Origin: an uncultured Clostridia bacterium
GTDB taxonomy: Bacteria > Bacillota > Clostridia > Lachnospirales > CAG-274
DNA: 24,000 nt
Assembly (NCBI GenBank): GCA_910579745.1
Contig: CAJTVH010000029.1
Location: 10,438 to 34,437 of the forward strand
Direction of reading: 5' to 3'
Each line of letters starts with the position of its first letter. Positions within the stretch are counted from its first letter, which is position 1. Shown here in pieces: positions 4,204 through 20,159 of the stretch. The notes under the pieces were generated by a model that made no database searches, was not told the origin of the DNA, and saw nothing but the letters and a program-made list of their open reading frames with translations. The position numbers were made by a program, and so were the translations under genes.

Positions 4204-5237
4204 TTATTCTCTTAAAAATAAAGGTATTTTTTTTATAAACATAGACAATAGCAATGATATTAAATAAATTATCATCGTTATAAACGGAACAGAAATTAAA
4301 GGATTAAAACTATATAGAAAAAAACTTATTTCTTCTGGTACAATTTTTATTACAGCGTGATGAATCAAATATATCCCAAGAGTATATTTAGCTATACTCA
4401 TAAATATATTTTTTAAACTTTTAGGCAATTTAAAATCATATTTGAAAAACAAAAAAAACAGATGACGTTATCATTGTTGTATTTATATTTCCATATCCCC
4501 ATAAAGTTCCATTTAACGTTCCCGTGTTTTTTGATAAATAATATGTGCCTAAAACTGTTACCATAACAGATAGCGTACCTAAAATATATATTATTTTTCT
4601 TTTGTTTTTTGATATTTCTTTCACGGAAAAATAATATCCCAAAAGAAAATATCCAGAATATCCTGATATTAATAAATTTAATATCCTTTGATAATTTCAT
4701 TAGTATTAAACGCTGAAATTACACAGCTTGATATAAGCCATATAATTAAAATATATTCTACTATTTTTATTTTCTCACATATGAGACGATATATTGGTAC
4801 AGCGATATAAAAAGCGAGCAGCTGTAACAAAAATCCCATATGATACTCACCTTTTGCCCAATTAGTAAAAAAGATGTTAAGAATTTCAGTAGTGTCTTTA
4901 TTATCTGATATTAAAGGAACAATGTTTATAAAAGCGTAAATAAAAGACCATATAACAAATATTAAAAGTATTTTAAGAAAGTGTTTTTTAAAAAATTTTG
5001 TTATCCCAAATTCTTTATTAGGATTCAAAATTAGCGCGCCGGAAACCATATAAAAAAATTTACAGGAAATCTTACAGAAGATGCCCACATAATTAAATAC
5101 TTCCAAGAATCGTTATTAATATCTTTTACATAAGGCGCGCACACGTGAATCATTATTACAAAAAACGCGGAAAAAACTCTCAAATATTCAATATATTCTA
5201 TTTTAGATATTCTTGAAGTATTTAAAGCGTTTCTCAT
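4204..5237 (-). pseudogene. Acyltransferase family 3 (OatA/OafA-like membrane acyltransferase), disrupted by at least 3 frameshifts
   Basis: Consecutive minus-strand ORF pieces in three frames read as one protein of about 345 aa: ...RISKIEYIEYLRVFSAFFVIMIHV... / ...KFFYMVSGALILNPNK... / ...LISGYSGYFLLGYYFSVKEIS... / ...YTLGIYLIHHAVIKI... Shift 1 is inside the A7 run 5052..5058; one extra base would give VRFPVNFFYMVSGAL. Shift 2 is near 4680..4700. Shift 3 is in the A5/A8 runs 4445..4458. The likely original start is ATG 5237, with AAGAGGAA upstream. Confidence 0.8.
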
Positions 5238-5264
5238 ATATCTATTCCTCTTAACTATATTCAA

Positions 5265-6839
5265 TTATTTATTTTTAGCGCGTTCAACATTTATTTTTCT
5301 ATTTTTTATTTTTTTACCTTTCATTCCTTTTAATACATCTTTTACATATTTTTTAGGAACGTCAACAAATGTAAAATCATCATATATATCAATATGCCCC
5401 AGAGATTTTCCCGGAATACCCGATTCTCCCGCTATAGCGCCAACAATATCTTTCGCTCGGACTTTTTTATTTTTTCCGATATTAATAAACACCCGAACCA
5501 TTTTCTCTGTATCCGTGAAAGTATCCTCGAAATCTATATCCTCGCTGTCCTCGTCATATAAATTCATTTTCAAAAGAGCCGCTGCAATATCAATAGACGA
5601 TATGTCCTCGTTCATCATTTTCTCAACAAGATTTATATATTTTGAGAGATGATTTTCTTCTATTACTGCTTTAATTTTTTCTATAAAAGAGTTTGTTTTC
5701 GCCTCTTCTATGTCCGTTAAAGACGGAAGTTTTCCTAAATGAATTTTAGCTTTTGTAAATTTCATTATATCACGAAGTTTATATATTTCACGTCCCACAA
5801 CAAAACTAAACGCTTTACCTGTTTTTCCGGCTCGACCTGTACGTCCTATTCTATGAACATAATACTCCTCATCTTGTGGAAGGTCGTAATTTATTACTAT
5901 GTCAACGTCGTCAACATCAATACCTCTTGCCGCCACATCTGTAGCGACAAGTATCTCTATAGTTCTGTTTCTAAATTTTTTCATTACCGTATCACGTTGA
6001 ATTTGTTTTAAATCCCCGTGAAGTCCCTCGGCGAAATATCCTCTTCCCTGTAATTGCTCAACAAGGTCGTCAACTCTTTTTTTAGTATTGCAAAATATTA
6101 TTGAGAGTTCAGGATTATACATATCTATAATTCTTGAAGTCGCCTCAAGCTTTGTTTTTTCCTTAATTTCAAAATAAGTTTGCTCAATATTAGGAACAGT
6201 AAGCTCTTTTCTCGCTACTTTTATATGCTCAGGATTTTTTTGAAATTTTTTTGTAATCTCAATTATCTCAGGAGGCATGGTCGCCGAAAATAAAACTGTC
6301 TGTCTTTCTTCAGGCATTTTTTCAAGAATAGTTTCAATATCCTCACGAAATCCCATATCAAGCATTTCGTCGGCCTCATCAAGAACAACTAATTTAACGC
6401 TGTCCATTTTTATGGTATGTCTTCTCATATGGTCCATTATTCTGCCCGGAGTGCCTACAATTACTTGTATGCCTTTTTTAAGAGCGAATATCTGCCTATC
6501 TATAGGCTGACCTCCGTATATAGGCAAAGTTTTGATACTATCCTTATATTTTAAAAGTTTTCTAAACTCTTCGCATATTTGAATAGCGAGTTCTCTTGTA
6601 GGCGATAATATTACCGCTTGAAGCCGCTTATCATCAGGATTTATCATTTCAATACAAGGAATTCCAAAAGCCGCCGTTTTACCCGTTCCTGTTTGCGACT
6701 GGCCGATTATATCTTTTCCCATCATCACTTTTTCTATCGCCTGTGACTGAATAGGGGTCGCTTCTTCAAATCCCATGTCTTTTACGGCATTAATAATCTC
6801 ATAGGATAAATTCATTTCCTCAAAAGTTAAATTTGACAT
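5265..6839 (-). CDS. DEAD-box ATP-dependent RNA helicase with a C-terminal DbpA-type RNA-binding domain
   Basis: Motifs seen: Q-motif/GFEEATPIQ, motif I GQSQTGTGKT, Ia PTRELA, II VLDEADEM, III SAT, VI HRIGRTGRAG. The C-terminal segment RVFINIGKNKKVRAKDIVGAIAGESGI...IDIYDDFTFVDVP is typical of the DbpA RBD. I prefer ATG 6839 (AAAGGA 7 nt upstream) over the TTG at 6842 used by the ORF track. Confidence 0.93.
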   Translation of the reverse strand: MSNLTFEEMNLSYEIINAVKDMGFEEATPIQSQAIEKVMMGKDIIGQSQTGTGKTAAFGIPCIEMINPDDKRLQAVILSPTRELAIQICEEFRKLLKYKDSIKTLPIYGGQPIDRQIFALKKGIQVIVGTPGRIMDHMRRHTIKMDSVKLVVLDEADEMLDMGFREDIETILEKMPEERQTVLFSATMPPEIIEITKKFQKNPEHIKVARKELTVPNIEQTYFEIKEKTKLEATSRIIDMYNPELSIIFCNTKKRVDDLVEQLQGRGYFAEGLHGDLKQIQRDTVMKKFRNRTIEILVATDVAARGIDVDDVDIVINYDLPQDEEYYVHRIGRTGRAGKTGKAFSFVVGREIYKLRDIMKFTKAKIHLGKLPSLTDIEEAKTNSFIEKIKAVIEENHLSKYINLVEKMMNEDISSIDIAAALLKMNLYDEDSEDIDFEDTFTDTEKMVRVFINIGKNKKVRAKDIVGAIAGESGIPGKSLGHIDIYDDFTFVDVPKKYVKDVLKGMKGKKIKNRKINVERAKNK

Positions 6840-7349
6840 CAATATTTCCTTTCTTGTACAAACAAAAGTTAATTTATATAATTATAAGACAAAATTTTAT
6901 AGTTAATAAAAACATTTACAAATATGGCAAGCCACTCATTTTATTTAATTAAAAGAGATTGTTCTATACTAAAAAAGAAGCTCATAATTAAAACGCTCAT
7001 AAGATATACTATAACAAGATATAGAGAAAATTGCAAGAAATATATTTTTATTTTATAAAAAATATATTTGCTGCAACTTTTAGATTTATAATAAAAATAC
7101 TTTTATTGACTATTCAAAATCACCTTTACTATGTAAAATATAATAATGACCAAATTAAGGATTTTCAGGTACATTTTAATAAAAAATTATTTTATATGAA
7201 TTATTTTACGTTATATCTAAAAATTATTTTCCAATATTTTTAAATATAAAATATTTTTTATTTCCACTGTAAAATTCTTATAATCAAACAAAGTTGATAT
7301 AAATTTGGTTATACACCGCAAAATTTTATTAGGAGGAATTAAATAAACT

Positions 7350-8241: not shown

Positions 8242-9675
8242 ATGGTTGAAATTTTAAAAAAATATTTTCGAGTATCTGAACAGCATTCTACCGTAAAAAA
8301 TGAAATCATAGCGGGAATTACAAATTACTTTACAGTAATTTATCTTGTTCTTCTAGTTCCCGAAATTCTTATTGGGATTTTTCCAGAGGCTATAGGTACA
8401 AACGGAGAGCTTATAGGAAATAAAATTATTTATGACGGCGTAACCGTAAACGGAATGCTGGTAATTTTAACGGCGGCGTCATTTATAGCCGCCGGTATAG
8501 GAACTCTTTTAATTGGTATTTTCATAAATGTTCCCTTCGCTCAGGGGCCAAGTTTAGCGGTGGGAACATTTGTCACTTATACCGTATGTGTAAACTTTGG
8601 CTATACTTTTAACCAGGCTTTGGCTATTATTTTTATAGCGGGAATATGCTTTTTTATACTATCTGTCTGCGGACTTGAGGAAAAACTGCACAGAGCTATT
8701 CCAAACAACATAAAATTCGCCGTCACAGCGGGAATAGGCTTGTTTATAGCGTATACAGGACTCGAAAAAGCCCATATTATACACATTGACGAAAATTCCA
8801 AAATAAGTTTATTTAATATAGTCGATTTTCAAAGCGTATATACAAGAGACGCGCTTTTAACACTTGTTGGAATTGTCTTAATTGTTATTTTAATAAAAAA
8901 AGGGGTTCACGGAGCGATTTTCGTCGGAAAAATTTTATGTATTATTCTCGCTCTTCCCCTTGGTTTAATAAAAACAGTTGAATTTGAAAAATTCGAATAC
9001 TCACTTGATTTGTCAAAAACATTTTTCAGCCTTGACTTTTCGGCTTTAATCGATACAACAAGTTTTTCAAGAGGAATATTTTCTCTTACAACAATTATTA
9101 TACTTGTTTTTTCCATCTGTATAATGGATATTTTTGAAACGATGAGCACTTTCATCGCCACAAAAAATTTTATAAAGGTAAGTAATGATAAAAGCAATGT
9201 TACAAAAAAAGCCCCAAGAATTCTTGAGATTGATTCTATAAGCACATGTATTGGGGCTTTGGTCGGTTCCAGTACAATTTCAACCTATGTTGAAAGTACC
9301 ACCGGAGTTGTTGAGGGAGGTCGAACAGGACTTACAGCAGTCGTTACCGGAATTTTATTTTTAATTTCAGTTTTTTTCTCACCTTTTGTCTCAATTATCC
9401 CTTCTTCCGCTACGGCGACAACTTTAATTATGGCGGGAATAATAATGATAAATGTTATAAAATATATTAATTTTGAAGATGTTGCCGAAGCTGTGCCAGC
9501 TTTTTTTACTTTCTTTATAATACCTATAACAAAAAGTTTAATTATAGGTATTTCTTTTGGTATAATATTTTATGTTATTATTAATATATGTATCGGAAAA
9601 AGAAAAAAAATAAAAAATCCTCTTTATATTTTAGCCATATTATTTATTATAATATTAATGCTTATACCCCGATAA
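8242..9675 (+). CDS. NCS2 family permease (AzgA/PbuG-like adenine/guanine/hypoxanthine permease)
   Basis: 477-aa multi-TM protein. The N-terminus FRVSEQHSTVKNEIIAGITNYFTVIYLVLLVPEIL matches the COG2252-type nucleobase permease start. It lies 55 nt downstream of uppP, so there is no room for a purine riboswitch. Confidence 0.88.
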   Translation: MVEILKKYFRVSEQHSTVKNEIIAGITNYFTVIYLVLLVPEILIGIFPEAIGTNGELIGNKIIYDGVTVNGMLVILTAASFIAAGIGTLLIGIFINVPFAQGPSLAVGTFVTYTVCVNFGYTFNQALAIIFIAGICFFILSVCGLEEKLHRAIPNNIKFAVTAGIGLFIAYTGLEKAHIIHIDENSKISLFNIVDFQSVYTRDALLTLVGIVLIVILIKKGVHGAIFVGKILCIILALPLGLIKTVEFEKFEYSLDLSKTFFSLDFSALIDTTSFSRGIFSLTTIIILVFSICIMDIFETMSTFIATKNFIKVSNDKSNVTKKAPRILEIDSISTCIGALVGSSTISTYVESTTGVVEGGRTGLTAVVTGILFLISVFFSPFVSIIPSSATATTLIMAGIIMINVIKYINFEDVAEAVPAFFTFFIIPITKSLIIGISFGIIFYVIINICIGKRKKIKNPLYILAILFIIILMLIPR

Positions 9676-11568: not shown

Positions 11569-11785
11569 TAATTTACCGCCCTTTCAAATAAAAAATCCCA
11601 TAAATTTTTATTGACCATCTGATACCAAACGCCATTTAATCTATAGCTAAAAAGTTAGTTGCCTATCAGGATAAATTTTTAGCGTCAGAAAATTTTTTAT
11701 AAAGTGAAATAAAAAACGCTTAGTAAAAAAAATTTTCAAATAGTCCATACAAAAAAATATTTGTTTATTTTAACCAAACATCATT

Positions 11786-11814
11786 ATTATACAATGTCTA
11801 ATCAAAATAAACAA
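11786..11814 (-). promoter_or_regulatory. Candidate sigma-A promoter with an extended -10, driving the small ORF-prfC operon
   Basis: The minus strand reads TTGTTT (11814..11809), a 17-nt spacer ending in TG, then TATAAT (11791..11786); that is, TGTATAAT. This implies a leader of about 210 nt before the ATG at 11568. Confidence 0.5.
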
Positions 11815-11853
11815 GTATTTTTTTTAACACTAAAAAATTATAGTCAATAAACT

Positions 11854-11888
11854 AAAAAAAGCAGAACTTAATATAGCTCTGCTTTTTA
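11854..11888. terminator. Orphan terminator-like hairpin flanked by an A-run and a T-run, with no adjacent intact gene
   Basis: AAAAAAAGCAGAACT-taatat-AGCTCTGCTTTTTA. The stem is 6 bp, one mismatch, then 2 bp, with A7 upstream and T5 downstream, so it could act in either direction. The nearest intact genes are more than 280 nt away. Confidence 0.45.
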
Positions 11889-12744
11889 TAGGGAAAACTC
11901 ACGGTAAATAATTTGATACCTTTAATTTCAAAACTAAAATTACTTTCACAATACCCATACCGCTCAAGTCCGTTTACATCAGCTTTTATTTAAAATTTAT
12001 CAGCTATCGGATTATAAATACCTTCTCTTATAAAAACTTTCCGTTCCTCTATCAAAATATTCCCCCAAATATTTGAAAAAGTGGCATATTTATTACCATA
12101 CCGGAAGCATAATATTAATTATAAAAATTAAATAAATATACTTTTACTCTTTAAATTTAGTTTTCATAAATATTATTTATTGCTCTTCAGTAATTTTTTT
12201 CTGTACTGTCCGCAATCCACATACATTATAAGCATTATAAAAGTAATAATTATTTTGACTGACTTTTTATTTTTAATATCATATATTAAAAATATTAAGG
12301 CCATTGTCTGCTATATAAGTCTATGAATAACAGCTGTTTATTTTTGTTAATTTTCATATCATCTTAATATATTATACCGCTGTTTTCCCCACATTTTAAT
12401 AATATAATAAACTTTTACTAATTTATTATATACCTAATTAAATATATTTTTATTTTAATAACTTCAATTAAATTACTCTTATAACATTTATACCCTTAAA
12501 ACCTACTTTTTTATCGATATTATTATAGGTATTGGCTGTAACCCCATTACAGCTTTATAAATATTATGAAAATAATCTATAGAAGCCCTCCTTGACTTTT
12601 TAGCATTCAATCTTAATATATTTAGTATTATTTTCTTAAATATATACTTATTACATAAATATTAATAATTATCAGAAAATAACATAAATAAAAAAATAAA
12701 TTTATAAACCATTCCTTGCGGTTTATTTTAAAAACTCATTATTT

Positions 12745-13326
12745 TTATTTCGTGTAAATTTTTCTCTTCTTATCTTTTAAATATCCCAACAAAACCAATA
12801 CAGATGCAATAGTAACAGAACATATCAAAATATTATAGATTTTTTCCATACCTATATATTTAAAAAATATTACTGATAAAATATCAATCATTATAATTTT
12901 AGTAACTTTACTTTTATATTTTATTTTTTCTTTTTCGTCTAATCTTTTATTTTCATTATCAATAGGTGATAAAATAAGGATAACCACTATTGACGCCACA
13001 AAAAGTAACGTCAATAGTGCATTGTTATAAATAGATTGTAAATTACAAAACCCTATATATGATAATGAGACTAAATTAGAATATATAAAACATCGTATTC
13101 TTGTATTCGCGTGATAACCGCCAGAGTATCTTCTTAAAAAGATAAAAGCGACTAAAAATAATATTCCGTCCCATAAATGTCCGAAAAATAAATACAAAAT
13201 TATTTGACAAATCCAAAATAAAATATAATTAGCTAATTGGTAAAGTCCATATCTTATAAATTCTAAATTGTCATTATCGATAATTCCTTTTATTTTTAGG
13301 TTTTCTAAAAATCTATTCACAATCAC
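12745..13326 (-). CDS. agrB: Accessory gene regulator protein B (AgrB; AgrD-processing membrane endopeptidase)
   Basis: 193-aa polytopic membrane protein with the AgrB signature FLRRYSGGYHANTRIRCFIYS, in which the conserved His and Cys are 7 residues apart. GTG start at 13326, 6 nt after the agrD stop. Confidence 0.9.
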   Translation of the reverse strand: MIVNRFLENLKIKGIIDNDNLEFIRYGLYQLANYILFWICQIILYLFFGHLWDGILFLVAFIFLRRYSGGYHANTRIRCFIYSNLVSLSYIGFCNLQSIYNNALLTLLFVASIVVILILSPIDNENKRLDEKEKIKYKSKVTKIIMIDILSVIFFKYIGMEKIYNILICSVTIASVLVLLGYLKDKKRKIYTK

Positions 13327-13332
13327 TCGCTA

Positions 13333-13509
13333 TCAATCCTTTTTTAACTTTTCCGCGTTTTTAGGCAAATTAGGCTGATATAGAACATATGTACATGTTG
13401 AGTTTACCTCAGCCATTAATACCGCCATTGCCATAGACGCTAAAACACCCCCACTTTTAACCATAAGCTGCCCACTAAGATTTTGAATCTTACTTAATAT
13501 GTTTTTCAT
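13333..13509 (-). CDS. agrD: AgrD-type cyclic-lactone autoinducer peptide precursor (58 aa)
   Basis: MKNILSKIQNLSGQLMVKSGGVLASMAMAVLMAEVNSTCTYVLYQPNLPKNAEKLKKD. It has an amphipathic/hydrophobic leader, a single Cys followed by four residues (CTYVL), then a Pro-containing charged tail (YQPNLPKNAEKL). It is directly adjacent to agrB. I use the second ATG (13509), 7 nt from AAAGGAGG; the first ATG (13515) is only 1 nt from the SD. Confidence 0.8.
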   Translation of the reverse strand: MKNILSKIQNLSGQLMVKSGGVLASMAMAVLMAEVNSTCTYVLYQPNLPKNAEKLKKD

Positions 13510-13536
13510 AAACATACCTCCTTTGAATTTTTTATA

Positions 13537-14513: not shown

Positions 14514-15196
14514 AATTTAATCCCCCAACATAATATTGTTTTTATATAAATTATATCCATAATTTTTCATCTAAAACATATAAACTTATTTTTTCATAGT
14601 CATATCAGAATTAATATAATATGAAATAAAAAATAGTAAAATAAACATATATTTTATAAAAACAAAATTACTTTTTTAAACATTTTTCTAAATTTGATTT
14701 GAAAAGCAAAGTTTGTAATTACGTTCTTTTATATTTCAAAATATCCCATTTATTTAATAAATACCACAACGTAATTTTAGTGTTTGAATCTTTTTTATCT
14801 CCTTATTAGTTCCTTTTAATCATACTGTATTTGAATTTTTACATAATAAAAGTTTAAAATTTTTAAATTATTATGAAAAAGTGTTATAAAAATTATTTTT
14901 CTTTATTCATAAAACAATTTAGTCTATATTTATAGTCAGTAAATCATAGATAAATTTTATTTTGTATAATCTTATTTTATATTTTTGTAGATAAATTTTA
15001 ATTTTTTCTACATTAACTAATTTTTATTTTCAAACACGCATTGAAATCGTTTCTATTGTAAAAATATTATTGGATAACAAATAAATCCGTAAAAAAACAG
15101 AAATGTTTAAAAAGACTGATAAATATATCTTTTGTGTTTATATCTTTATTTAATTTTTTTAAAATACTACTTCAAGTACTATATTCAAAATTAAAC

Positions 15197-15215
15197 TTTT
15201 TCAGATACGCCCTAA
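15197..15215 (-). repeat. Copy 1 of the dispersed 19-nt motif (TTAGGGCGTATCTGAAAAA in the minus sense)
   Basis: Shares the exact 13-mer GCGTATCTGAAAA with the copies at 19577..19595 and 19725..19743. Intergenic. Confidence 0.7.
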
Positions 15216-15333
15216 TAAAAAATTCATATTTGTCACCAAGTTTTAAAGTTTCTGAACAAATTTAATAATACATCAAATATTTTATAACATATTCTAAAGG
15301 AAAAATAAAATCTAAAAAAGAAAAAATTACTAC

Positions 15334-15362
15334 GATTATTTTTTTTTGTTGACGCCATAATA
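15334..15362 (+). promoter_or_regulatory. Possible forespore (sigma-G/F type) promoter for the SASP gene
   Basis: CATAATA at 15356..15362 fits the CATnnTA -10 pattern. GATTA 17 nt upstream is only a partial fit to the GnATR -35. The site is about 70 nt upstream of the SASP ATG. Confidence 0.25.
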
Positions 15363-15432
15363 TTATTGTAACCTAAAGTTACAAAACAAATAAAATAAAA
15401 ATTACTTTTTTAAATATCAGGAGGTAATAATT

Positions 15433-15669
15433 ATGTCAAACAATAATGGTTCAGGTTCAAACAGAGCAACTGTTCCCGAAGCGAGAGCGGCATTAGATCA
15501 GTTTAAATATGAGGTTGCTAATGAAATCGGTGTTCCTTTAAAACAAGGTTATAACGGTGATTTAACTTCCGCGCAAAATGGATATGTCGGCGGATATATG
15601 GTTAAAAAAATGATTGAGGCTCAGGAGAGAGAAATGGCTCAAAAAAATCAGACTCCATCTTCAAAATAA
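15433..15669 (+). CDS. Alpha/beta-type small acid-soluble spore protein (SASP)
   Basis: 78 aa with both conserved SASP blocks (ALDQFKYEVANEIGV and GGYMVKKMIE). Strong RBS: AGGAGGT 7 nt upstream of the ATG. Confidence 0.95.
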   Translation: MSNNNGSGSNRATVPEARAALDQFKYEVANEIGVPLKQGYNGDLTSAQNGYVGGYMVKKMIEAQEREMAQKNQTPSSK

Positions 15670-15716
15670 GATAAAATAATTTAATATATAAAAATGTGCT
15701 AAATATGCACAAAAAA

Positions 15717-15753
15717 CGGATATTAAAATTGATTATTTTAATATCCGTTTTTT
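15717..15753. terminator. Bidirectional intrinsic terminator shared by the SASP gene and the convergent cotJ operon
   Basis: Perfect 13-bp stem: CGGATATTAAAAT, loop tgatt, ATTTTAATATCCG. It is flanked by A6 (15711..15716) and T6 (15748..15753). Confidence 0.85.
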
Positions 15754-15844
15754 AATTTGTTTTTTATTTACAGACAAAACAAGAGAGTATTTTAATATTT
15801 TATACCAGCGTAATATCAGAGTGTTAATATAAAAACTTAATTTT

Positions 15845-16495
15845 TTATAGTTCTCTTGGCATTATAATAGATGGATTTTTTCCACATTTACAATTTTGTT
15901 TTGGCCGACAAGGCTTTGGCATTATAAACGTATGCTCTGAATCAAAATAATCCTGTACTATTCTTAACGCTTCGCCAAATCTCTGAAAATGTACTATTTC
16001 TCGTTCACGTAAAAACTTTATCGGCTCTATAACATCAGGATCGTCTGTAAGAGTTAAAATATACTCATAAGTTGAGCGCGCTTTTTGCTCTGCCGCCATA
16101 TCCTCATACAAATCTGTTCGAGGATCTCCTTTTGATTGTAAATATGAAGCTGTAAATGGTACTCCCGCAGCGCTTGATGGATAAATGCCTGTTCCGTGGT
16201 CTACGTAGTAACTATCAAAACCTTGTTTTTTTATTTGCTCAGGATCAGCATCTTCTAATAATTGCAAAACTATTGAACCTATCATCTCTAAATGAGCCAG
16301 TTCCTCGGTTCCTATATCGTTTAATACGGCTTTCGCTTGGGGAGTAACCATTGAAAAACGCTGACTTAAATAACGTAATGAGGCTCCAAGTTCTCCATCC
16401 GGACCTCCGTATTGACTTATAATTATTTTTGCGAGACCAGGATTTGTTTGTTTTATTTTAACAGGAAACTCAAGTTTTTTTTCGTAAATCCACAT
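15845..16495 (-). CDS. cotJC: Spore coat protein CotJC (manganese catalase family)
   Basis: MWIYEKKLEFPVKIKQTNPGLAKIIISQYGGPDGELGASLRYLSQRF matches the CotJC/Mn-catalase N-terminus. Di-metal ligand regions EELAHLE and REREIVH are present. I use ATG 16495 rather than the upstream GTG 16507 in the ORF track. It starts 2 nt after the cotJB stop. Confidence 0.9.
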   Translation of the reverse strand: MWIYEKKLEFPVKIKQTNPGLAKIIISQYGGPDGELGASLRYLSQRFSMVTPQAKAVLNDIGTEELAHLEMIGSIVLQLLEDADPEQIKKQGFDSYYVDHGTGIYPSSAAGVPFTASYLQSKGDPRTDLYEDMAAEQKARSTYEYILTLTDDPDVIEPIKFLREREIVHFQRFGEALRIVQDYFDSEHTFIMPKPCRPKQNCKCGKNPSIIMPREL

Positions 16496-16497
16496 TA

Positions 16498-16785
16498 TTA
16501 ATAACACTCCTTTACATTAAAATTAAAATCTCTTTTCCATGGCCATGGACAATTTATCCATTTAAACTCACAATCAGGACTCATAGATCTGAAGGAACAT
16601 AGAGGACCATACATTTCCTCAAACTCATAACGTAAAGAATCCGCTTCTTGAATAATATTGTTATATTTTTCAATAACTTCCTCATCATTTGGATGAGTGT
16701 CTAGAAAAAGATGTAAATCAACAGCGATAAAATCGAGAATACTCAGTTTTTTTAATAAAGCTTCTCTTTCACTATTTTCACACAT
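16498..16785 (-). CDS. cotJB: Spore coat protein CotJB
   Basis: 95 aa. LSILDFIAVDLHLFLDTHPNDEEVIEKYN is the characteristic CotJB block. It sits between cotJA and cotJC with 3-nt and 2-nt gaps. Confidence 0.85.
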   Translation of the reverse strand: MCENSEREALLKKLSILDFIAVDLHLFLDTHPNDEEVIEKYNNIIQEADSLRYEFEEMYGPLCSFRSMSPDCEFKWINCPWPWKRDFNFNVKECY

Positions 16786-16788
16786 AAA

Positions 16789-17022
16789 TTAACAGCCTCC
16801 TTTTTTTAAATATGGCTCAGGTTTATAAAGTTCGGGAAAAACGGTTCCCGCTAAAAAAGCTTCGCAAGGTTCTAAAAGAGAGCAGTATTTTTGAAAAGGA
16901 ACAAAGGCTCTTGCCAAATCATTACAAATAATTTTTTGCTCACATGGAATACATTTCATTTTGCCTATATCATCACAACAAGTTTTATCATAGGCGTTTT
17001 TTTTATCGCACATATTTGACAC
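16789..17022 (-). CDS. cotJA: Spore coat-associated protein CotJA
   Basis: 77 aa, Cys-rich N-terminus, then the LARAFVPFQKY...EAFLAGTVFPELYKP block typical of clostridial CotJA. GGAGGTG lies 6 nt upstream of the ATG. First gene of the cotJABC operon. Confidence 0.8.
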   Translation of the reverse strand: MSNMCDKKNAYDKTCCDDIGKMKCIPCEQKIICNDLARAFVPFQKYCSLLEPCEAFLAGTVFPELYKPEPYLKKGGC

Positions 17023-17248
17023 CTCCGAAATATTTATTGAAATCTATTGGGAAATTTGATAAATTAATCAATATTTCCTTAAGGTTCTTTATAACAAAAG
17101 TTGTAAAGAACAATCTATTAAAAGGAACCCCCTTTTTGGTTCATAGTTTATATTATTCATACATAAAATATTTGTGATTAAATGTATAGTGGAAAAGAAG
17201 ATAAAAATTTTAATTAATTGGCTGAAATGTAATTTTATTTATGCTTAA

Positions 17249-17267
17249 TTAGGAAGTATCTGAAAAA
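17249..17267 (+). repeat. Copy 2 of the dispersed 19-nt motif (TTAGGAAGTATCTGAAAAA)
   Basis: Identical to copy 1 at 17 of 19 positions. It lies in the divergent cotJA / 17336-ORF intergenic region, 69 nt upstream of the plus-strand ATG. Confidence 0.6.
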
Positions 17268-17335
17268 ATAAAAACGAATATATTTTTTATTATTATATAA
17301 AATATATCATATATGATATTCAAGCTTGGAGGTAT

Positions 17336-17917
17336 ATGATGATTAAAATAGGAATAATAGGCGATTTTTTAAAAACAGCCGGAATAATATCAAGTATTTT
17401 GGAAAAAAGTTCATTTTCTGTAAAAATAATAAATTATAAACATTTTTTTTCTATAATGCAAAGTAATATAGACTTTCTTATTATTGGAATTTGTTCTCCT
17501 TATACCTCTTCAGATTATATAAATAAACTTCAGCTTGATATACTAATAATAAATGATTCCTCACAAATTACAAATTTAACGAATCCTCCATTTTTAAGCA
17601 ACAAATTAAGCATAGTTTTATTAAATTCTGATAAATCAGAAGAAATAGAACTAAAAACAAAAACGCCGTTTTATGTAATAACTTTTGGATTTAACTCAAA
17701 CGCCACAATAACAATATCAAGCAGAGTATCAGGCGTTAATGATACTTTGCAAATATGTATACAGCGTAATTTGACAACATTACAAAACGTTAAAATTTTA
17801 GAACAAGATTTTTCAATAACTGTCAATAGTAAAAACATAGATGTAATTCTCTCAGCGATAAGCGCGGCAATACTTTCTGGTATAAGTATAGATACACTAA
17901 AAAATATGATAATTTAA
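17336..17917 (+). CDS. Hypothetical protein resembling a stand-alone, degenerate Mur-ligase central (ATPase) domain
   Basis: 193-aa ORF after GGAGGT; the second ATG at 17339 has the better spacing. By-eye similarity to the Mur ligase middle domain: IGIIGDFLKTAG vs GVTGTNGKTTT; DFLIIGICS vs d.avmEvSS; LDILIINDSS vs fdiavfTNl; VITFGFNSNATI vs vitfG...ad; NIDVILSAISAAILSGISIDTL vs NvyNalAAia.a..lGi. The P-loop is degenerate and the Mur C-terminal domain is absent. Confidence 0.6.
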   Translation: MMIKIGIIGDFLKTAGIISSILEKSSFSVKIINYKHFFSIMQSNIDFLIIGICSPYTSSDYINKLQLDILIINDSSQITNLTNPPFLSNKLSIVLLNSDKSEEIELKTKTPFYVITFGFNSNATITISSRVSGVNDTLQICIQRNLTTLQNVKILEQDFSITVNSKNIDVILSAISAAILSGISIDTLKNMII

Positions 17918-19301
17918 AAAAATATAGCTTAAAAAATAATGTAAATTAGCTATTTTGGACTTAAAGCTTTATTAGAATTATATATTCTATCAATAATATA
18001 CGGTTTTTTTATTAAAAAAGGTTTATCAGTAAATAAGATTAATAATCTTTTTTTACTTATTATAAATTTTTATATATATAGATTCAAATTATTAAATCTT
18101 AGGTGGAGCGTTTGAAATTTTTTTGTTGTTATGATGATTTGCTCGGTATACATTTACTAATGTGACCATTGTGTGTCTTAGGCGGTATATAACAAAATTC
18201 GATACAATAAAACAGTTTATAAAATACTAAATAAAATTGCTAAGTTCAGTATATTCGAAAAAAAATTTATAAAGCTTGGAACTATGGAACATAAAGAAAT
18301 TTATATAGAAATCAGTTTTTAAAAATATAAAAAGAAAAAAATACAATACTTTCAATGATATATTAAAATTTTTGATAAAAGTATAAATTAAAATTTTACA
18401 CAATGTTTAAAAATAGCATGAAATTTAAAAATATTAAATTCATATGTATCTGAAACAAGAGCTGGAAAACTTAATATTGGAAAACCTTATTCACTTTATA
18501 TGTATATGACAGATGTTTCTACAACCTTAAAAAGCCCTAAAGTAATAATATAAAAAATGATAAAATTATAGAAAAATTCAATTTAACTAATAATGTCAAT
18601 AAATGTATAATTTTTTAGATAAACCAGATACATATTATATTTATAGCGAAAAATAAAGTAGAAATATATATATTTATGAACGGGATCTTTCTTCGTTTAT
18701 TAAGTTAGATATTGAAGATTTTGTAATATAGGTTTAAGAGAATAAATCCGAAAATTTTTATGCAAACATATGTTTAAACTCAAAAAACAGAGGAGCTACA
18801 GATACTTTTATAGCTTGCTATGATATAATCTGACAGTACTTTACGGCGCTATAAACTCAATTTTCTAAAAACAAAAAAACAGCTTTGTATAAGTTATCAA
18901 TTGATAAGCATTTATAAATTTGTGCCATACAAAGATATGGAAATAAATTTGCTCAGACTTGAAGAAAATATATTTTCCCGTTTTTACCATAAATGTCTAA
19001 ACATTTAAAGTACTAAAAATCCTAAAAAAGCAAAAATAGTAAAAATAACTCATTCTATCTTAATAAGTAGTATTTATAGTTATCCATAAACAAATTTCTC
19101 TTTATTATTCCTCCAAAAAATTACGTTCAATTCTAAATTGTCGTGAAGTTTCCCAAACCCTCAAAAAAACGCAAAGTGTTCTTTTTTTAAACCACTTTAC
19201 GTCTGCTATTAATAAAAAAGTATATTGTAAAATTAGGTAAAAATCAACTTATTTTAACATTTAAAATTTATATTATTTAGTAATTTAAGAATATTTAACT
19301 T

Positions 19302-19346
19302 AAAAACTATATAATCACTATCATTTATACGATAGTGATTATATAG
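19302..19346 (-). terminator. Intrinsic terminator (minus sense) with a perfect 16-bp stem
   Basis: CTATATAATCACTATC (19307..19322), an 8-nt loop, then GATAGTGATTATATAG (19331..19346). In the minus sense it is followed by T5 (plus-strand A5 at 19302..19306). There is no T-run in the plus sense. Confidence 0.6.
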
Positions 19347-19520
19347 TGATAATTCAATTATATATAAATACTCAAGACTTTTGAATATCTTTTGTCATTT
19401 CACACTCCGCAGCAAAAAACTTTACTACTCTCCATTTCTTTTTCACTTAAACCGTATGTTCCTTTTTCTGTCAATTATCTCCATTTTCTTTTTGGTTGTT
19501 ATTGACATTTACATAGTTTA
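19302..19520 (-). ncRNA. Candidate small RNA or leader transcript ending at the 19302..19346 terminator
   Basis: A purine-rich minus-strand stretch that is more G+C-rich than its flanks. It has four GGA/GGAG motifs (plus-strand tcc at about 19405, 19431, 19460 and 19480). It also has a duplicated AAAAAGAAA(A)TGGAGA unit (19429..19443 and 19478..19493). Only mini-ORFs of 8-13 codons are present. I could not identify a convincing promoter. Confidence 0.3.
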
Positions 19521-19576
19521 ATATTCTGACTCTTTAAAATTTAGATTTACCGTTTTAATATCTTTAGACAAATCAA

Positions 19577-19743
19577 CTAAAGCGTATCTGAAAACAAAAA
19601 TACGCACAAAAAATTATAAAAAATAAAACGAAACAGAAAGGCTTTTCTGTTTAATTGAACCGTTTTCGTTTATTTTTTTATAATTTTTTGGATATTTCGC
19701 GTATATAACTGATAGTTTATGACAGTTTTCAGATACGCCCTAG
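19577..19743. repeat. 167-bp MITE-like element bounded by 19-nt inverted repeats (motif copies 4 and 5)
   Basis: The left end is CTAAAGCGTATCTGAAAAC (19577..19595). The reverse complement of the right end (19725..19743) is CTAGGGCGTATCTGAAAAC, matching at 17 of 19 positions. The interior is itself an imperfect long palindrome (AAAAAATTATAAAAAATAAAACGAAA vs TTTTCGTTTATTTTTTTATAATTTTTT) around a central hairpin. The right end overlaps the TAG stop (19740..19742) of the C_GCAxxG_C_C gene. Confidence 0.55.
19610..19652 (-). terminator. Intrinsic terminator for the C_GCAxxG_C_C/GH43/rarA gene string, carried inside the IR element
   Basis: In the minus sense: AAACAGAAA-agcc-TTTCTGTTT followed by CGTTTTATTTTTTATAATTTTTT. 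It lies about 90 nt downstream of the stop at 19740. Confidence 0.6.
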
Positions 19744-20159
19744 TTTTTTGATGTTGTTTTGAAAATAATCTCATCAACAATGTTAATCGTATCTTCTATA
19801 CACCCCTCACAAGTGCGTAAAACTTTTTTAGTATCAACACCTTTTAACTCTTTACAAATAACAGATGAATTCTTAGTTTGAAATTCTTTAACAATCTCTT
19901 TTATAATTTTATATGTATCCGCTTTTGTCGTTGTATTTTTCGTACCCACACTGTTTTTAAGTCCCGCGAGAATAACAGCTCCTGAAACAGCTCCGCACAT
20001 TCCCTGCATATTTCCAAGACCAGACCCAAACCCCTCGGATATTTTAAACATAATTTCCTCATCAATCCCAAAATCATCACTATACGCACACGCGACAGCC
20101 TGACAGCAGTTATAGCCCTTTTTACGATTTTCAATAGCTTTTTCAAATTTACTCTTCAT
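19740..20159 (-). CDS. C_GCAxxG_C_C family protein
   Basis: 139 aa with the family pattern: NCCQAV..., GMCGAVSGA (the GCAxxG motif), and later CKEL... and CEGC cysteines. Confidence 0.88.
   Translation of the reverse strand: MKSKFEKAIENRKKGYNCCQAVACAYSDDFGIDEEIMFKISEGFGSGLGNMQGMCGAVSGAVILAGLKNSVGTKNTTTKADTYKIIKEIVKEFQTKNSSVICKELKGVDTKKVLRTCEGCIEDTINIVDEIIFKTTSKN

Follow-up and report, generated by a model that had tools for sequence, protein, structure and literature searches.

The 24,000-nucleotide stretch analysed here (hereafter the window) lies on contig CAJTVH010000029.1 of a metagenome-assembled genome (MAG) of an uncultured, spore-forming member of the Clostridia. It is A/T-rich throughout, with a G+C content of about 21-38% per kb, and is 100% identical to positions 9918-33917 of contig CASZFW010000006.1 in assembly GCA_949489255.1. 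A G/C-containing motif of 18-19 nt recurs in its right-hand half, in the spacers adjoining a gene for a small acid-soluble spore protein (SASP; 15433-15669) and the cotJ operon, whose cotJA gene lies at 16789-17022, and again beside a minus-strand C_GCAxxG open reading frame (ORF) at 19740-20159. The motif is very probably the terminal inverted repeat of an IS5-family insertion sequence (IS), with the consensus GGGCGTATCTGAAAAC, together with a flanking Y-TA, and it is carried here by a non-autonomous miniature inverted-repeat transposable element (MITE) of 161 bp. The features, named according to this interpretation, are as follows.

19577-19743, plus strand: complete MITE with its flanks, arranged as C-TA / 161-bp element (19580-19740) / TA-G; contains no ORF and forms a long imperfect hairpin.
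19580-19595, plus strand: left terminal inverted repeat AAGCGTATCTGAAAAC, with the flanking target dinucleotide TA at 19578-19579.
19725-19740, minus strand: right terminal inverted repeat GGGCGTATCTGAAAAC, as read on the minus strand, with the flanking TA at 19741-19742.
19607-19690, no strand assigned: MITE interior, a 27-bp inverted repeat (93% complementary) surrounding a small AAACAGAAA/TTTCTGTTT hairpin.
15197-15215, minus strand: solo right-end terminus T-TA/GGGCGTATCTGAAAA, agreeing with the consensus at every position; neither a partner nor a MITE interior can be recognised.
17249-17267, plus strand: solo left-end-like terminus T-TA/GGAAGTATCTGAAAAA, matching at 16/18 positions, 69 nt upstream of a 193-aa ORF.
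18446-18456, plus strand: core-only fragment GTATCTGAAAC, lacking the YTA flank and with a weak 12/18 partner near 18609-18626.
24953-25118, 28150-28315 and 28874-29039 (window-equivalent coordinates, outside the window): further MITE copies on the source contig, between genes.

The motif is described here by the 18-mer TTAGGGCGTATCTGAAAA, which consists of a pyrimidine, TA and the first 15-16 nt of the terminal inverted repeat. It has four sites in the window where 0.03 would be expected by chance, at 15198-15215 (minus strand, no mismatch), 17249-17266 (plus strand, two mismatches), 19577-19594 (plus strand, three mismatches) and 19726-19743 (minus strand, one mismatch), and none of 100 dinucleotide-preserving shuffles contained as many. 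The exact 13-mer GCGTATCTGAAAA is present three times, starting at 15198, 19582 and 19726, and the 10-mer core GTATCTGAAA five times (0.10 expected), the short copy at 18446 included. None of the four strong copies lies within an ORF, and the only matches to the 13-mer within coding regions of the window, at 8270 and 10201, carry two mismatches each and are at chance level (0.88 expected). The first-pass annotation of this DNA had reported four strong copies, three of them sharing the 13-mer, and a shorter copy GTATCTGAAAC at 18446-18456, and had argued that their recurrence is not chance and is confined to intergenic DNA; on each of these points our counts agree, its 19-nt span being the 18-mer plus one flanking A. 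Its distance of 69 nt from the motif to the ORF starting at 17336 is likewise right, and we measure 218 nt from the motif to the SASP start, in agreement with its placement.

Two of the four strong copies, those beginning at 19577 and ending at 19743, are the inverted ends of one 167-bp unit, a pairing that is absent from the earlier description. The two ends (AAGCGTATCTGAAAAC and GGGCGTATCTGAAAAC) match at 14/16 positions, the family consensus reading GAGCG... at one end and GGGCG... at the other, and no ORF of 50 or more amino acids overlaps 19577-19739. The element aligns over its full length with its sister copies (nhmmer, E=5e-54), and the internal 27-bp inverted repeat is invariant across seven MITE copies. 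As one complete MITE, 19577-19743 accounts for two of the four motif copies. The suggestion that the motif is a solo MITE terminus was therefore right as to its kind, an IS5-family MITE terminal inverted repeat; as to its solo state it applies to two of the four copies only, the other two being the paired ends of this unit.

The right end of the MITE (19726-19743) abuts the C_GCAxxG ORF, whose TAG stop codon (19740-19742, minus strand) is composed of the flanking TA and the first G of the repeat. The MITE sits exactly in a CTAG containing the stop codon, and the TAG would have been regenerated after insertion because the repeat begins with G. A YTAR target covers both TAA and TAG, and, judging from this single case, harmless insertion at the ends of genes may be favoured.

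The MITE belongs to a multi-copy family. Copies were counted on a 41-kb section of the source contig that was pieced together from L132 and L135. This section contains four full copies, the three others being 92-93% identical to the copy in the window and all four being intergenic. Their gene neighbours are the C_GCAxxG gene and genes for a heavy-metal ATPase, a methyltransferase and a peptidase. A metagenome scan with a pattern derived from the interior recovers three additional copies at unrelated loci, all between ORFs. Moreover, contigs of conspecific MAGs from independent assemblies end within MITE copies (L004-L009, L139 and L140), and assemblies that break inside the copies show the behaviour of a multi-copy repeat. 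The 885-bp segment spanning two of the contig copies (28150-29039) was considered as a decayed IS and rejected, both MITEs being complete and the DNA between them having no similarity to transposases. Two palindromes also lie on the contig beyond the window. One, at L135 7489-7529 (window-equivalent 25463-25503), is a 41-bp mini palindrome, TTAAAGCGCATCTAAAAAC-AACC-GTTTTCAAATACGCTTTAA, in which two degenerate termini stand back to back; it may represent either a footprint or an element with an internal deletion. The other, at L135 7738-7798 (window-equivalent 25194-25254), is a near-perfect palindrome of 61 bp that adjoins a MITE copy in the spacer between the ATPase and methyltransferase genes.

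The same 16-bp terminus is found at the ends of complete insertion sequences in other Clostridia. Scans of public collections for the motif gave many Clostridia genomes, with at least 101 stretches of genome contigs, none of those listed being from the source MAG; among the matches listed, GGGCGTATCTGAAAAC, flanked by Y-TA...TA-R, bounds IS copies of 879 bp (L088), 877 bp (L069) and 845 bp (L092). The L088 element, from Huintestinicola butyrica, contains two ORFs, orfA (4712-5104; Pfam DUF4096) and orfB (5179-5538; Pfam DDE_Tnp_1), which score 123.9 and 116.8 bits respectively against the NCBIfam model NF033580, 'IS5 family transposase' (cut-off 110). orfB is one frame back from orfA, which ends in an AAAAAAG slippery site, and the two are predicted to be joined by programmed frameshifting. 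At least 11 loci among the matches listed have an IS5-family transposase beside the motif. The left 35 nt of the MITE are 83-86% identical to the left end of the IS copies in L069 and L088, and dozens of loci among the matches listed carry MITEs of about 161 bp with the same 16-bp ends and unrelated, G+C-richer interiors; 161 bp is the modal element length among paired ends.

This shared terminus also bears on whether the copies could instead be a palindromic family of the repetitive extragenic palindrome (REP) or bacterial interspersed mosaic element (BIME) kind, served by an enzyme of the REP-associated tyrosine transposase (RAYT) type or by none, and so not derived from an IS. The copies are short, palindromic, intergenic and present in several copies, as such a family would be, but they share identical ends with IS copies encoding a DDE transposase of the IS5 family, the length of the element is fixed and it is flanked by TA. 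No Y1/RAYT-type gene is seen near any copy examined, and a size of 167 bp with 16-bp inverted termini is typical of MITEs and unlike REPs of 20-40 nt. We give this explanation next to no probability.

MITEs with the same termini and interiors of 40-50% G+C include L011 286-452 and others in L036, L057, L075, L077, L082, L089, L096, L117 and further stretches; they occur in many MAGs of gut Clostridia and on one IMG/VR viral contig, and several genomes, MGBC108887 and Heritagella gallinarum among them, hold many copies. Matches of viral stretches L012-L029 to the degenerate pattern (the TTAAAG/TTAAGG variants) mostly lie in one conserved coding sequence of related large phages, and L011, L017, L021 and L023 are the only viral matches that resemble real element ends.

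The target preference is apparent from the flanks of the paired elements. In a pair survey that set no TA requirement, where the counts refer to partner ends free of the search-pattern constraint and include some spurious pairs, TA is at the expected position in 35 of 51 partner ends, and the position before it is a pyrimidine in 42 of 51. Most elements have TA at both flanks, within Y-TA...TA-R. In DDE insertion sequences the transposase recognises both inverted termini and moves the intervening DNA, and MITEs retain the termini only. We therefore propose for the IS5-derived MITE that the IS-encoded DDE transposase would bind and cut at the two inverted termini, that the DNA between them would enter Y-TA-R sites with a TA remaining on either side, and that a MITE with termini alone would be mobilised in trans. 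The intergenic-only distribution would then follow from selection against insertions within genes and from the frequency of YTAR in A/T-rich spacers and stop codons.

Two strong copies, at 15198-15215 and 17249-17266, stand alone. With all filters off, nhmmer aligns only the terminal 16-21 nt at these sites (17 nt at 15198). Relaxed pair searches find no partner terminus for either, a gapped 10/16 match at ~15033-15048 being judged not significant, and searches for a transposase remnant in 14514-15215 and 17249-19743 (tblastn, E<=50; blastn, word size 7) return noise, the MITE ends excepted. We consider it fairly likely that both are remnants of truncated insertions, most plausibly older ones that have undergone deletion or decay; the copy at 17249 is probably decayed or truncated, and the core-only fragment at 18446-18456 may be a decayed terminus. 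In the spacer 6843-7349 there are two weaker terminus-like sites, 7162-7179 (minus strand) and 7206-7223 (plus strand), each with one mismatch to YTANNNNNTATCTGAAAA, placed 27 nt apart and back to back like the solo copies. Along with the 18446 fragment these may be older debris, or the pair at 7162 and 7206 could be chance occurrences in A/T-rich DNA.

It is these two solo copies that had suggested a binding site for a transcription regulator tied to sporulation genes, since they lie in the spacers adjoining cotJA and the SASP gene and point outward from the SASP-cotJ block. The remaining contig copies, however, flank the non-sporulation genes listed above, and among the matches listed the same sequence ends transposase-bearing insertion sequences and MITEs near unrelated genes in dozens of genomes. 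Related species with a CotJC that is 80-87% identical have no copy ahead of cotJ, even with two mismatches allowed, and in the conspecific strain L003 a single-nucleotide polymorphism at 15210 falls within the copy that precedes the SASP gene. The proposal of a sporulation-linked site made in the first-pass annotation consequently fails on gene neighbours, on related cotJ upstream regions and on strain variation alike, and we regard it as extremely unlikely. Nor does the ORF at 17336-17917 (plus strand) retain the label 'Mur-ligase-like' given to it there, having no Pfam match (E<=5) and no sequence match in the PDB. This 193-aa ORF is called in all the MAGs and is absent from the cotJ neighbourhoods of related species.

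The folding of the MITE raises the question of an RNA-level role. The window copy is predicted to fold as RNA at -58.9 kcal/mol (z=-10.4) and as DNA with z=-9.8, and so stable a structure, with z about -10, could be a small RNA, terminator or attenuator in which the motif is kept as the base of the stem. A T-rich run comes after the inner hairpin when the minus strand is read past the end of the C_GCAxxG gene, and MITE copies tend to follow the 3' ends of genes closely. Against this, searching the entire window against Rfam (E<=1) gives only two chance-level eukaryotic matches, a terminator scan does not flag the inner hairpin, and the orientation of the copies relative to the upstream gene is inconsistent. 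None of the 57 predicted pairs shows compensatory changes, a comparison of low power, being based on seven sequences that are about 90% identical. The covariation term, at +0.98, is unfavourable, and the variants break pairs or yield wobbles. Across genomes the termini are conserved and the interiors unrelated, which is the signature of recognition by a transposase and not of an RNA. An RNA element as the primary identity of the unit, another of the possibilities raised initially, is thus very unlikely, although a secondary terminator effect of the MITE is plausible. The window contains no tRNA genes. Upstream of the MITE is an ORF-poor stretch of about 1.66 kb (17918-19576) with ~22% G+C, no convincing ORF and no Rfam match, (nearly) identical in all strains; within it, a perfect palindrome at 19306-19347 (stem 19 bp, loop 4 nt) is terminator-like on the minus strand.

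Several observations weigh against derivation from a mobile IS5-family element, or restrict what can be concluded from it. Both solo termini are devoid of a recognisable partner or interior. No presence/absence polymorphism was found, conspecific strains at 99.4-100% identity sharing all insertions, and an exact scan of the metagenomes for the reconstructed empty-site junction gave 0 matches; as the empty site was not found, mobility in this lineage is something we infer, and the copies at different loci imply past movement only. Without an empty site, the TA on both flanks equally fits a plain preference for TA as target. The copies diverge by 7-8% and have imperfect termini (AAGCG compared with GGGCG), from which the family may no longer be active. 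Finally, the 41 kb of source contig examined yielded neither an autonomous IS nor any remnant of a transposase. What the sequences themselves show is the repeat structure, the multi-copy family, the ends in common with transposase-bearing IS copies and the YTA/TAR flanks; from these, mobilisation in trans by an IS5-family transposase is the probable mechanism. We retain the IS5-family MITE as the explanation of the motif. The family is an unnamed and previously undescribed member of a well-known type of selfish repeat; a literature search found no paper describing this MITE, and the 13-mer gave a single, unrelated primer match.

A further possibility is that the termini and hairpins have been co-opted by the host, in which case the MITE in the C_GCAxxG stop codon and the solo termini bracketing SASP-cotJ could act as bidirectional terminators, insulators or residual transposase-binding sites. 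Separately, the constancy of 161 bp across Clostridia genera could reflect the geometry of an IS5-type transpososome and not shared descent. We put both forward as speculative and consider them unlikely.

Recognition of the IS5-family MITE accounts for a non-random G/C-containing repeat in A/T-rich spacers, which is of value for annotation, removes the false lead of a sporulation cis-element, and draws attention to one origin of contig breaks in the MAGs of this species, a mouse- or gut-associated member of the Clostridia. The 16-bp terminus also ties an unnamed ISLpl3-like IS to many MITEs of about 161 bp, whose hosts include Oscillospiraceae, Acutalibacteraceae, Butyricicoccus, Ruminiclostridium-like and other gut Clostridia, with one copy on a viral contig. 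This link may be of use in catalogues of insertion sequences and MITEs and in strain typing; it opens no new biological question.

Two other regions of the window deserve comment. An Acyl_transf_3 gene on the minus strand (4204-5237) shows a pseudogene polymorphism: the source MAG and some of the strains have it broken into three ORFs, and strain SRR11792747 carries an intact version of 350 aa (L134 8561-9613). A 60-aa ORF directly precedes the AgrB gene (12745-13326, minus strand; region 12745-13515), and the 1.2 kb or so that follow the gene (11569-12744) contain no ORFs; an AgrD-like ORF was not identified.

The nearest annotated IS is ISLpl3 (853 bp; L150 423-1275), with flanks CTA...TAA and termini GGGACTGTCTGAAAAC that are identical to GGGCGTATCTGAAAAC at 13/16 positions. 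The Clostridia IS copies (L088, L069 and L092) resemble it in size, two-ORF layout, A-run slippery site and Y-TA...TA-R flanks; the C-terminal halves of the transposases are 61% identical, and both belong to NF033580. The window element differs from ISLpl3 in being 161 bp long and having no transposase, and hence is not an IS. ISLpl3-like elements probably belong to the IS427 group of ISfinder. IS5-family elements of the IS427/IS1031 groups are reported to be ~860-900 bp long, with a frameshift-joined pair of ORFs and inverted repeats of 17-22 bp (PMC3196728; PMC2516522). The Clostridia elements may also be set beside two bacterial MITE families of other hosts. Correia elements of Neisseria and RUP elements of Streptococcus pneumoniae are about 100-300 bp long, have no ORF and are present in many intergenic copies. 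Such MITEs have inverted ends that correspond to those of an IS acting in trans, and short flanking repeats at a target containing TA, and their hairpin transcripts can influence neighbouring genes. The window MITE shares with Correia and RUP the short ORF-less form, the inverted IS-type ends, the TA-containing flanks, the intergenic location and the capacity to form a hairpin. It differs in sequence, in host group (gut Clostridia) and in its parent. That parent is an IS5-family element for the window MITE; RUP is associated with IS630-Spn1, and for Correia no partner is known. With REP and BIME sequences the window MITE family has in common that it is intergenic, palindromic and repeated; REPs, by contrast, are about 20-40 nt long, are associated with RAYT (Y1) enzymes, and have neither the IS-type inverted termini nor the TA flanks that characterise the Clostridia MITE.

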